Assembly: GCF_035594765.1 (NCBI RefSeq)
Contig: NC_085844.1
Location: forward strand, 157,434,107-157,498,106
Reading direction: 5' to 3'
From: Anolis carolinensis
Lineage: Eukaryota
DNA length: 64,000 nt
Position numbers and translations under genes: made by a program
Notes under the pieces: model-generated
Database searches by the model: none
The model's input: only the letters and a program-made list of their open reading frames with translations
Told to the model about the DNA's origin: nothing
Shown here: one piece after another, positions 40,867 through 64,000 of the stretch
Layout: each line of letters opens with the position of its first letter
Numbering within the stretch: the first letter of the stretch is position 1

Positions 40867-43800
40867 ATCGCATTCAAAGCATCCCCAACAGGTGGCCATC
40901 CAGTCTCTGCTTAAAAGCCTCCAAAGAAGGAGCCTCCACCACAGTCCGGGGCAGAGAGTTCCACTGCCGAACAGCCCTCACTGTGAGGAAGTTCTTCCTG
41001 TTCAGGTGGAATCTCCTTTCCTGTAGTTTGAAGCCATTGTTCCGTATCCTGTCTGCAGGGCAGCAGCAAACAAGCATGTTCCCTCCTCCCTATGACTTCC
41101 CCTCACATATTTGTACATGGCTATCATGTCTCCTCTCAGCCTTCTCTTCTATAGGCTAAACATACCCAGTTCTTTAAGCCACTCCTCGTAGGGCTTGTTC
41201 TCCAGACCCTTGATCATTTCAGTTGCCCTCCTCTGGACACATTCCAGCTTGTCAATATCTCCCTTCAACTGTGGTGCCCAGAATTGGACACAGTATTCCA
41301 GGTGTGGCCTGACCAAGGCAGAATAGAGGGGTAGCATGACTTCCCTAATCTAGATGCTATACCCCTCTTTATGTAAGCCAAAATCACATTGTAGGCTCAT
41401 GTTTAACTTGTTGTCTATGAGGACTCCAAGGTCTTTTTCACACATACTGCTGTCGAGCTAGGCATCATCCCCCATTCTGTATCTTTCCATTTCATTTTTT
41501 CTGCCTAAGTGCAGTATCTTGCATTTGTCCCTGTTGAACTACATTTTGTTAGTTTCGGCCCATCTCTCTAATCTGTCAAGATCATTTTGAATTCTGCTCC
41601 TGTCTTCTGGAGTGTTAGCTATCCCTCCCAGTTTGGTGTTGTCTGCAAACTTGATGATCGTGCCTTCTAATCCTTCGTCTAAGTTGTTAATAAAGATGTT
41701 AAACAGAACCGGACCCAGGACGGAACCCTGCAGCACTCCACTTGTGACTTCTTTCCAAGATGAAGAAGATGCATTGGTGAGCACCCTTAGGGTTCGTTCG
41801 CTTAACCAATTGCAGATCCACCTAACCGTAGTTTTGCCTAGCCCACATTTGATTAGCTTGTTTGCCTGAAAGTCATGGGGGACCTTGTTGAAGGCCTTAC
41901 TGAAATCCAGATAGGCTACATCCACGGCATTTCCCCCATCTACCCAGCTTGTAACTCTATCAAAAAAAAGAGATCAGATTAGTCTGGCATGATTTGTTTT
42001 TGGTAAATCCATGTTGACTATTAGCAATGACTGCATTTGTTTCTGTTTGCAGACCACTTCCTTAATGATCTTTTCCAGAATCTTGCCTGGTATCAACGTG
42101 AGACTAACCAGACAGTAATTGTTTGGATAAGGACCTTCTTGAAGATAAGGACCACATTCGCCCTCCTCCAATCTGCTGGGACTTCTCCCGTTCTCCAAGA
42201 ATTCTAAAAAAATGATTGCTAGTGGTTCTGAAATAACTTCCGCTAGTTCCTTCAATACTCTTGGGTGTAGTTGATCCGGCCCTGGAGACTTAAATTCATT
42301 TAGAGCAGCCAGGTATTCTGGATGACTTCTTTCCCTATTTGGGGTTGGATTTCCCCCAATCCTTCATCCACTCCATGTTACTGAGGTCGAGTCTGGCTTT
42401 CTTTTTGTGAGAAGACTGAGGCAAAGAAGGCATTCAATAGTTCTGCCTTTTCCCTATCCCCTGTCAGAATTTCCCGATCTTCTCCTTGCAGAGGCCCTAT
42501 CGCCTCCTTGTTCTTCCTTTTCCTACCAACGTAAGCAAAGAAGCCCTTTTTATTGTTTGTAATGTCTCTGGCAAGCCTGAGCTCGTTTTGCGCTTTGGCC
42601 TTGCGAACCTTTTCCCTACAGGAGTTGGCTATTCGTTTGAATTCTTTGTGGGTGATTTCTCCCTTTTTCCATTTCTTGTGCATGTCTTTTTTTAGTCTTA
42701 GACCAGTTAGAAGTTCTTTGGACATCCATTCTGGTTTCTTTGCACTTGTCTTGTTTTTATTCTTTGTTGGCATTTGCGCCTTGAGTATTTCACTTTTGAA
42801 AAACTCCCATCCATCCTTGACTCCCTTGTCTTGCCGCTCAGTATTTCTTTTCTTTTCTTTTCTTTTTTTTTGGAAGTCAGCTCTCCTAAAGTCCAGAATG
42901 CGGGTTTGACTTTTTTTTTTCCATTTCGGCCTTCCTTTGTATCACAAACTGCAGGAGCACATGGTCGCTTACCCCTAAGGATCCAACCACTTCAACTGCA
43001 TTGATCTGGTCCTCTGCATTTGTTAGGATGAGGTCAAGAGTAGCCAATCCCCTTGTTGCCTCTTCTACCTTCTGGACCAGAAAATTGTCTGCAAGGCAGG
43101 CGAGGAATTTGTTTCACTTTGTACTCTTGGCCGAATTTGTTTTCCAGCAGATATCAGGATAGTTGAAATCGCCCATGACTACTATATTTCTTCTTTGTGC
43201 GTGTTTGGTCAGCTGCTGACAGAAGGCTTCATCAAGTTCTTCATCCTGGTTCGGAAGTCTGTAGTAGACACCCGCAACGAGATCTTTTTGAGTCCCGGTT
43301 CCCTTGATTCTTATCCAGATGCTTTCAAGCTGGTTTTCCGCTGGATTGCCATCTTGCATCTCTTCTGCAATGTAAATGTTTTTGACATATAGGGCTACTC
43401 CCCCTCCTCTCCCCTTTGTTCTGTTTCTGTGAAAGAGATTATAGCATTCAATGGCTACATTCCAGTGATGGGAGTCATCCCACCACGTTCCAGTGATGCC
43501 TATGGCATCGTAAGTGTGGTGTTGTGCTAAAAGTTGGAGTTCATCTTGTTTATTCCCCATGCTCTGTGCATTAGTGTAAAAACATGTAAGCCCCTGGGAC
43601 CTTCCCCTGTACCTCTGGGATTACTGTGTTCTTGGTAATTGGTGTTTGTGCAACCCTCCATTTAGCCTTATGGCGATTCCCTGTGGTCATGGGTAAAATG
43701 CTGCTCGCAAGGCTATTGTCCCCCTCCCCCGGCTGACCTAGTTTAAAGTGCGCCTGATTAAGTTTGCTAATCTGTGAGCAAAAAGGTGTTTTCCTACTTG

Positions 43801-43945: not shown

Positions 43946-44121
43946 GGCAACATGTCTGAGTGGTGACATGAGATAATATGAAATTTCTCTTCATGTCATT
44001 TGCTCTGCAGTGGTCCATTCACACATGGGCAAGCCCTACTTGATGTTGTACTCGTTGTAATCTCATGACGATGATGAACATGAATATATGAATCAGCTCA
44101 AAGATTAATTTAGGATGCTTG

Positions 44122-44800
44122 CAGGCCCGGCCCAACACGGGACGCTAGCCACGCCCCCGCGTTGGGCGCCATGTTCCCAGGGGCGCTATCGAGCCCCTGG
44201 GAGGCGTGGCCACACTTGGCCCAGCCTCCGGCGCCCTGGCCCTGCCTCCCGCGCTGTGGGAGGCATGGCCACGCGACGCGGGAGGCGTGGTCAAGTCTGG
44301 CCCCGCCTCCTGCGGCGCCTGCCGTAGGGACAGGGTGGCTGCCGCGGGAGGCGGGGCCGGCCACGCCTCCCGCAGCGCACGCCCGCTGCAGCTTGGCTGG
44401 GACAGGGTGCCCGCCGCGGGAGGCGTGGCCAGCCCCACTTCCCTAGGCGGGCACACTGTCACAGCCAAGCTGCAGCGGGCATGCGCTGGAAGGACCGGAT
44501 TCCCGCTGCAGCCTGCCTGGGACAGGGTGTGGCTAGCTCTGGCCTTGCCTTCTGCCGCGCGCGCCTTGGCCAAGCTGCCCACGCTGTGGGGGGTGGGGTC
44601 AGGGCGCCCGCACGCAGCGTAGGAGGCGGGGCCAGGTCTGGCCATGCCTCCCGCGCTGCCCCATGCCATGGGGGTGGGGTCAGGGCACCCGCGCGTGGTG
44701 TGGGAGGCGGGGCCAGATCTGACCACGCCTCCCGTGGCACGGTGGGGGGGGTGCAAAATTTTTTTTGCATACCCCTGAAGATTCCCTTGGGCCGGTCCTG
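44122..44800. mobile_element. GC-rich non-autonomous hAT-like element
   Basis: TIRs caggcccggccc / gggccggtcctg; 8-bp flanks GATGCTTG / GAGGCTAG (6/8). Confidence 0.75.
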
Positions 44801-44971
44801 GAGGCTAGCGTTCATTGGTAAAGGAAGCATTATGAACACCCTGTCTTGGCATTTTTCAGATATCTTGGGTTCTTCTCTTAATTGTCACCTGAGACCAGCG
44901 ATTATTTCAAGTGAAGGAGAGGGAGATAAAAAGCAAGCTTGTTCCACAGCTCCTCCTCAAATAGTTTAATA

Positions 44972-60012: not shown

Positions 60013-60262
60013 TAGAATCATAGAATCATAGAATAGTAGAGTTGGAAGAGACCTCATGGGCCATCCAGTCCAACCCCCTGCCAAGAAGCAGGAAATCGCA
60101 TTCAAAGCACCCCCGACAGATGGCCATCCAGCCTCTGTTTAAAAGCTTCCAAAGAAGGAGCCTCCACCACAGTCCGGGGCAGAGAGTTCCACTGCCGAAC
60201 AGCCCTCACTGTGAGGAAGTTCTTCTTAATGTTCAGGTGGAATCTCCTTTCCTGTAGTTTGA
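60013..60262 (-). mobile_element. CR1 3'-terminal fragment (250 bp) with (TTCTATGA)n tail
   Basis: Near-identical to 9570-9812 and 40867-41032. Confidence 0.95.
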
Positions 60263-60675
60263 TCCCAGAAGGGCAGTTGGTTCTCGCAGAAGCAGAGGAA
60301 GCAGGAGGACATTTTTGCTCCCTGGCTTCAGGTAGGATTTGGCTAAGATTTGGCTAAGATTTTAAACTGAGTTTGGGCTTGGCTCCTGTGGTCAAAGTCT
60401 AACTGTTGTGTGACTGTGTGTTGAAAGAGAGCCAGGTACTTAAGTTGATTGACAGCAGGCATTGTCCCCTGTTAATTGAGTTTCTGGGAAAGCTTTATTT
60501 GCCAGTGTGAGTTTCTGCCAGAGCCTGATCCCAGAAGGGCAGTTGGTTCTCGCAGAAGCAGAGGAAGCAGGAGGACATTTTTGCTCCCTGGCTTCAGGTA
60601 GGATTTGGCTAAGATTTGGCTAAGATTTTAAACTGAGTTTGGGCTTGGCTCCTGTGGTCAAAGTCTAACTGTTGT
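60260..60675 (+). repeat. CR1 5'UTR tandem repeat (266-bp unit plus 150-bp partial unit), putative internal promoter
   Basis: tgatcccagaagggc... starts at 60260 and again at 60526; second copy matches to 60675. Confidence 0.85.
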
Positions 60676-60835
60676 AGAAAAGGCACCTTTACTAACTATC
60701 CTTTGCAGTACATACAGGAAACAAAGCAACATAAACAAATACACAAAGACGTGGTTTGTTGCAGTCTGCACATAAAGTGCGTGCATATTACTTAACTGTA
60801 CAAAGATCCCACTTGGCCACCACGCTCACCAAGAG

Positions 60836-62107
60836 ATGCAACAAAAGCAAAACATTCCCATCACATGCACCAGCTGTCGCATGTTCCGCTTTTTCACACA
60901 AAAACTAGACAACTACATCTGCTCCAAATGCAAACAGATGACTCTGATGGAGCAGAGGATCCAACAGCTCGAGCACCGTATTAAGACCCTTAAGGACATT
61001 CAGGCACTCGAGCTCTTCTTGGACACTGCACAACACGCTGCTGTAGATCAGCAGCCTGCATCACACCAACACCACCAAGACCATGATCAGGAACCTTATG
61101 GGGAGATCAACTCAAAGGTAGACAACCCTCAGGCTTGGAAGGAGGTCACCCATAGAAGGAGACGCAGGACCAGGCAGCCTCCACAGAACTCCTCTGCTCA
61201 GCTGCATTTACACAACAGATTTGAAATTCTTACATCATTAACATACAATCAGGAAACACATCTTGTGGAGGACCACAGTTTCTTAGATACCACTCAGTGG
61301 ACCATCCTGGATCAATGCGCAGGGGATAGCCCTGACAGGGACAGTGCATCACCACAGTCACACTTATGTAATCATGCAAATGCTCCATCCCCAATCATAG
61401 ACCAGGAGCAACAGGAACATCCTTGGGAGAGTAATGGGCTCTCGGATGTATCTCAATGGATTGTCATTGATGAATGCACTGGGGATGTTGAGGAGGAGGA
61501 CAACACTTTACACCTACATGATTCACTTCAACAGGAACACTCTTCAGGGGACATACACACTGTCTTGCACAAAAGGGACCCTGTCAATCCTCAAAGGAAA
61601 CAGGTCTTGGTAGTAGGTGACTCCCTCCTTAGAGGAACGGAAGCCATCATTTCCAGACCGGATGGGATGGCTCGAGAAACATGCTGCCTCCCGGGGGCAA
61701 AAATACACCATATCACTCAGAGGCTCAGCAGGCTCCTAAAGCCCCATCACCCTCCCCACCTTATGTTGATTCATGTAGGTACCAATGACACCGCTAGGCA
61801 TACTTTTCAAAAGATCACAAATGATTTTCGAGCTCTGGGAACAAAGCTAAAACTGTATAATGTACATGTGATCTTTTCATCCCTCCTCCCCGTTGTAGGA
61901 CATGGCTCTACAAGGGCCGGAAAAATAGTACAGGTCAATAACTGGCTCAGAAAATGGTGTCAAGAGGAGCATTTTGGCTTCCTTGACCATGGTCTACTCT
62001 TCCAAGAGGATGGACTACTGGCAAGCGATGGGGTGCATCTCACACAAGTAGGAAAACATCTTTTTGCACACAGACTCACAAACCTCATCAGGCGCACTTT
62101 AAACTAA
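60836..62107 (+). CDS. CR1 ORF1p: N-terminal CxxC..CxxC zinc finger/coiled coil and C-terminal SGNH/GDSL esterase domain
   Basis: 423 aa; CTSC..CSKC, heptad MEQRIQQLEHRIKTL, blocks VVGDSLLRG, PGA, HVGTND, DGVHL. Confidence 0.93.
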   Translation: MQQKQNIPITCTSCRMFRFFTQKLDNYICSKCKQMTLMEQRIQQLEHRIKTLKDIQALELFLDTAQHAAVDQQPASHQHHQDHDQEPYGEINSKVDNPQAWKEVTHRRRRRTRQPPQNSSAQLHLHNRFEILTSLTYNQETHLVEDHSFLDTTQWTILDQCAGDSPDRDSASPQSHLCNHANAPSPIIDQEQQEHPWESNGLSDVSQWIVIDECTGDVEEEDNTLHLHDSLQQEHSSGDIHTVLHKRDPVNPQRKQVLVVGDSLLRGTEAIISRPDGMARETCCLPGAKIHHITQRLSRLLKPHHPPHLMLIHVGTNDTARHTFQKITNDFRALGTKLKLYNVHVIFSSLLPVVGHGSTRAGKIVQVNNWLRKWCQEEHFGFLDHGLLFQEDGLLASDGVHLTQVGKHLFAHRLTNLIRRTLN

Positions 62108-62140
62108 ATCCGCTGGGGGAGGGGAACAACAGCCTGGCGA
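62098..62140 (+). promoter_or_regulatory. Putative -1 programmed ribosomal frameshift signal (U_UUA_AAC plus downstream G-rich stem)
   Basis: ORF1 codons ACT TTA AAC TAA; -1 frame TTT AAA CTA AAT.. is ORF2; conserved at 43741-43747 (minus). Confidence 0.55.
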
Positions 62141-64000
62141 ACACTATATTACCCACGACCACAGGGAACCGCCGAAAGGCTAAAAGGAGGGCTGCACAAA
62201 CACAGCAAGGACCAAGTACAGAGAGCACAATAATCCCAAATAAACAGTTCGAGGGGAGGTCACAGGGGCTTACATGTCTTTACACTAATGCTCAGAGCAT
62301 GGGAAATAAGCAAGACGAACTCCAACTCCTAGCACAGCACCACACATACGATGTCATAGGCATCACTGAAACCTGGTGGGATGACTCCCATCACTGGAAT
62401 TTAACCATTGAGGGCTATAACCTCTTTCACATAAATAGAACAAAGGGGAGAGGAGGGGGAGTAGCTTTATATGTCAAAAACAGTTACGTTGCAGAAGAAA
62501 TGCAAGACTGTAATCCGGGAAACCAGCTTGAAAGCATCTGGATAAGAATCAAGGGAACCGGGACTCAAAAAGATCTTGTCGTGGGTGTCTACTACAGACC
62601 TCCGAGTCAGGATGAAGGACTTGATGAAGCCTTCTGTCAACAGCTGACCAAACAGGCACAAAGAAGAGATATAGTAGTCATGGGCGATTTCAATTATCCC
62701 GATATCTGCTGGAAAACAAACTCAGCCAAGAGTACAAAGTCCAACAAATTCCTCACTTGCCTTGCAGATAATTTTATGGTCCAGAAGGTAGAAGAGGCAA
62801 CAAGGGGATCAGCAACTCTTGATCTAATCTTAACAAATGTGGAAGACCTGATCAATACAGTTGAAGTGGTTGGATCCTTAGGGGCAAGTGACCATGTGCT
62901 CCTGCAGTTTGCAATACAAAGGAATGCTGAAACTAAGACAAGTCAAACACGCATTCTGGACTTTAAGAGAGCTGACTTCCAAAAAATGAAGGAATTACTG
63001 AGCGGCATTCCATGGACGCCGATATTAAAAAACAAGGGAGTTAAGCATGGATGGGAGTTTTTCAAAAGTGAAATACTCAAGGCGCAAATGCAAACAGTGC
63101 CAACAAAGAAGAAAAATAAGACAAGTGCAAAGAAGCCAGAATGGATGTCCAAAGAACTTCTAACTGAGCTAAAGCTCAAAAGTGACATGCACAAGAAGTG
63201 GAAAAGGGGAGAAATCACCAAAGAAGAATTCAAACGTATAGCCAACTCCTGTAGGGAAAAGGTTCGCAAGGCTAAAGCGCAAAATGAGCTCAGGCTTGCC
63301 AGGGACATAAAAAACAACAAAAAAGGTTTTTTTGCTTATGTTGGTAGAAAAAGGAAGAAAAAGGAGGCGATAGGGCCACTGCAAGGAGTAGATGGGGTGA
63401 TGGTGACAGGGGATAGGGAAAAGGCAGAACTGCTTAATGCCTTCTTTGCCTCGGTCTTCTCACAAAAAGAAAGCCATCTTCAACCTCAGCAACATGGAAT
63501 GGACGAAGGATTGGGGGAAATCCAACCCCAAATAGGGAAACAAGTTGTCCAGGAACACCTGGCCACTCTAAATGAATTCAAGTCCCCAGGGCCAGATCAG
63601 CTACACCCAAGAGTACTGAAGGAACTAGCGGAAGTTATTTCAGAACCACTGGCAATTATCTTCGAGAGTTCTTGGAGAACAGGAGAAGTCCCAGCAGATT
63701 GGAGGAGGGCGAATGTGGTCCCTATCTTCAAGAAGGGAAAAAAGAACGACCCAAACAATTACCGTCCGGTCAGCCTCACATCAATACCAGGCAAGATTCT
63801 GGAAAAGATCATTAAGGAAGTGGTCTGCAAACACTTAGAAACAAATGCGGTCATTGCTAATAGTCAACACGGATTTACCAAAAACAAGTCATGCCAGACT
63901 AATCTGATCTCTTTTTTCGATAGAGTTACGAGTTGGGTCGATACAGGGAATGCCGTGGATGTAGCATATCTAGATTTCAGTAAGGCCTTCGACAAAGTCC
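62098..64000 (+). CDS. CR1 ORF2p (APE endonuclease + reverse transcriptase), partial, runs off window; start uncertain (first ATG 62299)
   Basis: Hand translation is stop-free from 61987 to 64000: CLYTNAQS, ITETW, YRPP, GDFN, DLIL, SDH, PGPD, NYRPVSLT, YLDFSKAFDKV. Absent from the ORF track because it has no stop in the window. Confidence 0.95.

Follow-up and report, generated by a model that had tools for sequence, protein, structure and literature searches.

Reading frames at the junction of an anole CR1 element

We analysed a 64,000-nt stretch of the Anolis carolinensis genome (the window; NC_085844.1:157,434,107-157,498,106 of assembly GCF_035594765.1, forward strand), and focused on the junction between the two open reading frames (ORFs) of a full-length CR1 long interspersed nuclear element (LINE) on its plus strand, in which both frames are intact. 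ORF1 (60836..62107) encodes 423 aa counted from its first ATG, carries a C-terminal SGNH/GDSL esterase domain (PF13472, E 1.8e-10) and ends R-T-L-N-stop; UniRef proteins named Anolis carolinensis are 100% identical to it over the region searched. ORF2, which encodes an APE endonuclease and a reverse transcriptase, lies in the -1 frame and extends from 62098 to the window edge at 64000. Counted from the heptamer described below it comprises 978 codons and ends at the equivalent of window position 65034, outside the window, followed by a CR1-type tail whose 3' end consists of 8-bp tandem repeats of the ATTCTATG type, without poly(A). From its domains, tail and homologues we assign the element to the esterase-ORF1 CR1 LINEs of vertebrates, with which it shares an SGNH esterase ORF1, an APE-reverse transcriptase ORF2 and the 8-bp tail repeats, and from which it is no different in family membership. 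The junction is a real feature of this family and, on the sequence comparisons given here, ORF2 is probably made by a programmed -1 frameshift at U_UUA_AAC, which would yield an esterase-endonuclease-reverse transcriptase fusion of ~1,400 aa.

The 3' end of ORF1 reads ACT TTA AAC TAA, with the first T of the heptamer at codon position 3. The sequence-only reading had placed an in-phase TTTAAAC directly before the ORF1 stop and had taken the -1 frame, open from 61987, for ORF2; both observations hold, since the slippery heptamer (62098..62104) abuts the stop codon (62105..62107, TAA in this copy) and the -1 frame stays open from 61987 to the end of the window. The length of the open -1 stretch upstream of the heptamer is not conserved. 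U_UUA_AAC is the slippery heptamer of the coronavirus ORF1a/1b junction. Two features of canonical -1 programmed ribosomal frameshifting (PRF) are thus found, namely an in-phase heptamer that follows the X_XXY_YYZ rule (PMC3542737) and an open downstream ORF in the -1 frame. Any X_XXY_YYZ stands directly before only 36 of 6,762 stop triplets (0.5%) on the two strands of the window, and this background, together with the recurrence of the heptamer in distant CR1 lineages, indicates more than chance. An older, broken CR1 copy on the minus strand keeps the heptamer and stop (43738-43747), as had also been noted, within a junction made up of heptamer, TAG, 10-nt spacer and G-run (43720..43747).

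The 30 best genome matches differ from the window at 0-2 of 351 bases, so the family is young, and the junction pattern gave at least 1,887 genome matches compared with 15 for a reversed control. Our searches of the same genome returned two subfamilies and one variant, with no other CR1 lineage among them. At position 62107, 14 of 30 young copies picked by their flanks read TAA and 16 TAG at the ORF1 stop, a sub-lineage change which keeps the stop and alters the -1 frame between Asn and Asp. Contigs of four sequencing runs guessed to be RNA, none of them recorded as such, cross the junction without a splice joint or indel, and splicing or editing was set aside as an explanation, although this is a weak test in that rare forms drop from contigs.

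Conservation of the junction across CR1 lineages

In a set of 80 ORF1 homologues that covers lizards, a snake, turtles, an alligator, birds and frogs, 53 end in L-N. For the bases themselves we used 41 metagenome loci found by upstream protein motifs and named bird-type from their protein matches. Twenty-five of these reach the ORF1 tail, where 3 end before the junction, 3 yielded none and 19 could be scored. The first three T's of the heptamer are present in 19/19 and the complete heptamer in 14/19. When the 19 loci were combined with three anole junctions (one of these copies having been picked by its heptamer pattern), the synonymous positions of the heptamer were T in 22/22, A in 20/22 and C in 20/22, compared with a mean majority of 0.62 at the third positions of the 12 upstream ORF1 codons; the codon before Leu varies among Ala, Ser, Thr and Val. 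The heptamer is conserved beyond coding need and, as far as these aligned junctions allow it to be judged, the constraint on it acts on bases, not residues.

For the consensuses in the supplement of PMC13343379 the analysis covered roughly the initial 400 letters each, in which we judged the ORF1 end from context and read species from abbreviations. At the ORF1 end lie 17 of its 23 heptamer+TA matches, 16 in CR1 consensuses and 1 in a Crack consensus, and the species include alligator, crocodile, bowfin, bullfrog, chimaera, two rays, catshark, dogfish and coelacanth. Because a search for heptamer+TA is circular, we also searched for synonymous alternatives, and found none at an ORF1 end among the 23 of 46 matches listed. 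Searches by the downstream motif or with other endings added 3 consensus rows: one agamid consensus has TGA after the heptamer, and two keep the heptamer without an adjacent stop, which may be consensus noise. The accessible supplement of PMC11303007 gave no junction matches, and nothing usable came from a first metagenome scan, a viral scan or a prokaryote-genome scan.

Twelve bird-type loci have a match to endonuclease strand 1. Six of their linkers are stop-free, in the -1 frame and multiples of 3 (111-285 nt), and the other six are out of frame, with stops or deletions. In predicted proteins F-K-L-x-x-x-G lies 33-97 aa from strand 1 and shares its frame.

Three side observations concern individual sequences. 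The Crack row, AldAff_Crack-2, has the heptamer and TAG at the end of an esterase-like ORF, a hint that signal and esterase ORF1 travel together. In two bird-type copies (L125:1420-1445 and L136:1950-1975) the heptamer is changed and ORF1 ends L-R-stop, the former having two in-frame ATGs past the stop; these junctions could be decayed or belong to a lineage that has turned to initiation at an AUG. One CR1 ORF1 protein (P0036, ending R-A-L-N) is filed as Klebsiella pneumoniae on a 2.9-kb contig and is probably host contamination in a bacterial assembly.

Start codons and the endonuclease N-terminus

Ahead of the endonuclease lies a linker in the -1 frame (62105..62268; 57 codons when counted from the heptamer up to strand 1) that is free of both AUG and stop codons. 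The first in-frame ORF2 ATG (62299..62301) falls within the endonuclease domain, and the claim that it follows the conserved Asn codon (62287-62289) of the L-T-C-L-Y-T-N motif (62269..62289) proved right. A profile search aligns this Asn with Asn14 of L1 ORF2p, which is required for L1 activity. An AlphaFold model (mean confidence score, pLDDT, 85.9) has L-T-C-L-Y-T-N as strand 1 (model residues 3-10) with the Met behind it, and the modelled fold matches that of the L1 endonuclease; a single-sequence PDB search gave only a weak match (E 0.66). According to the model, a protein begun at AUG 62299 would lose strand 1 and the conserved Asn. The database cluster of ORF2 proteins of this CR1 family (P0081, 514 members) begins at the internal Met and for that reason is without strand 1.

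These observations bear on the proposal that the conserved bases have a role other than in decoding (protein binding, packaging or a DNA element), combined with constraint on L-N, and that ORF2 is made by another route, AUG 62299 included. Conservation alone cannot name the process, and no stimulator structure was found (see below). However, phase, frame and stop position fit a frameshift exactly, and the product from 62299 would be without strand 1 and its Asn, and we regard this proposal as quite improbable.

The minus-strand copy has an in-frame ATG at the equivalent of window ACG 62155-62157 (plus strand), which the sequence-only reading had left as either CpG decay or the true ORF2 start. 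This site encodes Thr and is a CpG site. ACG is present in 30/30 young copies picked by flanks only and, in the young family overall (n=86), in 75, alongside 5 ATG, 4 ACA and 2 unscored. The old subfamily, for which 30 copies were ranked by likeness to the ATG-bearing minus copy, has 13 ACG, 12 ATG, 4 ACA and 1 AAA, and its other eight CpG sites show the same two-strand decay. On account of the uniform ACG in the young copies and this shared pattern we attribute the ATG, like the ACA of decayed old copies, to CpG decay; the site is no start codon and the true-start option was ruled out.

A near-cognate start at CUG 62113 or 62134 or at ACG 62155 could be reached through leaky scanning, internal entry or a shorter transcript, with the G-run slowing a scanning ribosome or serving as a promoter element. 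The two CTGs are in frame and the ACG is kept in both subfamilies, but the old subfamily reads CCG at 62113 and CTT at 62134, no such codon is conserved across lineages and the heptamer would go unexplained. We therefore consider a near-cognate start highly improbable.

A G-run downstream and the routes to ORF2

The sequence-only reading had located a G-rich segment 5-6 nt downstream of the heptamer and paired CGCUGGG with CCUGGCG. Neither point survived. The G-run GGGGGAGGGG (62115..62124, plus strand), a candidate stimulator, begins 10 nt past the heptamer, and the stem needs a G at 62112 that is present in 1/30 flank-selected copies and in none of the contigs of the four runs; this stem was rejected as a minority allele only. 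No conserved hairpin or pseudoknot arm was found in 12 copies from four groups (folding z -1.2 to +1.4), and for that reason we do not class the junction as a canonical structure-stimulated site. A local hairpin is probably not the stimulus. The G-run itself recurs: G stands at +11 in 21/21 scored junctions, irrespective of the codon it falls in, and the exact 10-nt spacing is found in six published consensuses that range from chimaera to crocodilians. With few exceptions the Gly codons of the run are GGG, which suggests a motif acting at the RNA level. A linear motif at 9-11 nt, as in arterivirus-type PRF, is therefore present, though not universal.

ViennaRNA predicts a two-tier G-quadruplex in 4/12 copies and in 0/3 young anole copies. 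The top long-range partner of the G-run in a young and an old anole copy lies at window-equivalent 64943-64962 (12 pairs), at the W-N-S-L-P codons some 90 nt upstream of the end of ORF2. The pairing score was reached by 3/200 synonymous shuffles but by 10-24/100 dinucleotide shuffles, scores for other G-rich 15-mers run from -15.7 to -20.9, the G-run itself having -20.9, and the bird 3' ends in two passages are without the C-run. Having failed the dinucleotide-shuffle control, the long-range pairing was discarded as evidence. That the stop next to the heptamer and the G-run stimulate the shift is speculative. It is conceivable, if rather doubtful, that in esterase-type CR1 LINEs of all jawed vertebrates a Gag-Pol-like -1 frameshift has operated since before the split of sharks and bony vertebrates, driven by no hairpin or pseudoknot but by a single-stranded G-run, kept at the 10-nt spacing, that is bound by a protein of the host or the element or folded as a quadruplex.

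Known systems supply partial parallels. Viral -1 PRF, including retroviral gag-pol, likewise uses an in-phase X_XXY_YYZ and joins a structural or ORF1 protein to a polymerase at a low ratio; in known eukaryotic -1 PRF sites a structure usually follows at 5-9 nt (PMC3542737), whereas we detected no stem-loop or pseudoknot there in CR1. The nearest precedent is provided by Dictyostelium TRE5-A and TRE3-A, which are also APE-type elements without long terminal repeats and for which a review figure legend states that a -1 frameshift is required for ORF2 (PMC5911963); they belong to another clade and have another ORF1. This precedent qualifies the earlier claim that characterised LINEs reinitiate rather than frameshift. 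In arterivirus nsp2 -2/-1 PRF, nsp1beta and PCBP act on a motif with a 10-nt spacer that takes the place of structure (PMC4937337), which may serve as an analogy only, the motif there being C-rich and that of CR1 G-rich. SART1 and human L1 resemble CR1 in having a bicistronic LINE RNA with ORF2 downstream of ORF1, but SART1 couples the two through UAAUG and L1 has a 63-nt spacer (PMC5972666), whereas the anole CR1 has overlapping -1 frames without an AUG ahead of the endonuclease. No account of CR1 frameshifting came up in full-text literature searches; the founding descriptions, reportedly those of Haas 1997 and Kajikawa 1997, lie outside their coverage, so a prior remark is possible. In the accessible portions, PMC13343379 does not mention frameshift, overlap, translation or ribosome for the junction, and PMC11303007 does not mention frameshift.

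Support for the frameshift reading comes from the deep conservation at synonymous sites, from a -1 phase that stays fixed and from CpG decay as the origin of the ATG, and a gag-pol-like fusion, as first proposed, remains the best explanation, stripped of its stem-loop stimulator. A number of observations weigh against it. The heptamer is changed in 5/19 bird-type copies and 3 further loci yielded no junction, these being decayed copies. The stem-loop or pseudoknot usual 5-9 nt downstream is missing, and the G-run is absent or closer in several low-quality fish consensuses. The L-N-stop ending could partly be a protein constraint. The linker pN/pS (nonsynonymous over synonymous differences) between young and old subfamilies is 0.141/0.249, near the 0.128/0.195 of the +1 frame, which we take from these alignments as weak purifying selection, too weak to discriminate. 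Beyond the anole a linker Met is usual: one precedes strand 1 in 19 of 20 predicted F-K-L proteins (one of the 20 being a mis-hit), though it falls within the first 10 codons in only 1 of the 20. UAAUG occurs at the stop in 3 shark consensuses, and an AUG lies two bases past the stop in 5/19 bird-type loci.

The last two observations are those expected of termination and reinitiation in the -1 frame near the ORF1 stop. The restart would use an AUG in lineages that have one and, in the anole, a codon other than AUG; ORF2 would be a free protein, and the conserved bases would tether or position the ribosome. This route is known in SART1, which uses UAAUG with a downstream structure (PMC5972666), and has been proposed for L1 (PMC5972666, PMC3708506); mammalian LINE ORF2 initiation is moreover considered AUG-independent (PMC5009743), so that the absence of an AUG is not decisive. 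In the anole, no AUG overlaps the stop or lies within ~14 nt of it, as it would in SART1 or caliciviruses, in the window copy, the minus copy or the 30 flank-selected copies. Elsewhere the AUG position is unconserved (codon 4, 5, 6 or absent), and reinitiation predicts neither a right-phase X_XXY_YYZ nor a constant -1 frame whose linkers measure 33 codons or more; the two consensuses that retain the heptamer without an adjacent stop also speak against it, unless they are noise. We judge reinitiation unlikely as the general explanation, and in some lineages it may accompany or replace frameshifting. As regards what had been expected of an alignment across lineages, then, a phase-correct heptamer is found from sharks to birds, the absence of an upstream ATG applies to the anole, most other lineages having a Met somewhere along the linker, and the stem is refuted.

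Under programmed frameshifting, most ribosomes would terminate at the end of ORF1 and yield its 423-aa protein. A minority would slip by one base, in tandem, on the Leu and Asn tRNAs and cross the 57-codon, presumably flexible linker into ORF2, and the predicted product is a Gag-Pol-like esterase-linker-endonuclease-reverse transcriptase fusion of 423 + 976 = 1,399 aa. Candidate stimuli would be the stop that directly follows the heptamer and the G-run at its 10-nt spacing, the latter protein-bound, in a quadruplex or paired at long range.

As to its setting, the young CR1 sits within an older antiparallel CR1 3' fragment (60016-60262, minus strand; joint at ~60262), which resumes past the 3' end of the young element. 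The insertion ends share 2-3 bases, and a clear target-site duplication was not seen. The 5' untranslated region (60263..60835, plus strand, start approximate) contains a ~270-bp unit about 1.5 times, spanning 60263-60675; contigs from four sequencing runs resume the unit at 60675, so other CR1 copies carry more of these units. Upstream of the old minus-strand copy lies a repetitive GC-rich stretch (44110-44970).

The mechanism of LINE ORF2 translation has been described as unclear (PMC3708506, PMC5009743). CR1-group elements dominate the retrotransposons of most vertebrates, and all vertebrate canonical CR1s encode the esterase ORF1 or cluster with those that do (PMC13343379). The lizard family, being young, abundant, AUG-free and intact in both frames, is the cleanest test case here. 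Natural use of a G-quadruplex in frameshifting was not known as of a 2016 review (PMC5009743), for which reason the G-run merits testing in its own right; were the shift driven by it, the run would represent a new natural class of frameshift stimulator, and the esterase would be tethered to the reverse transcriptase. If ORF2 is made by frameshifting, the working enzyme would be a fusion of ~1,400 aa, the database ORF2 proteins that begin at an internal Met would be truncated, and a single 7-nt site would set the ratio of ORF1 to ORF2.

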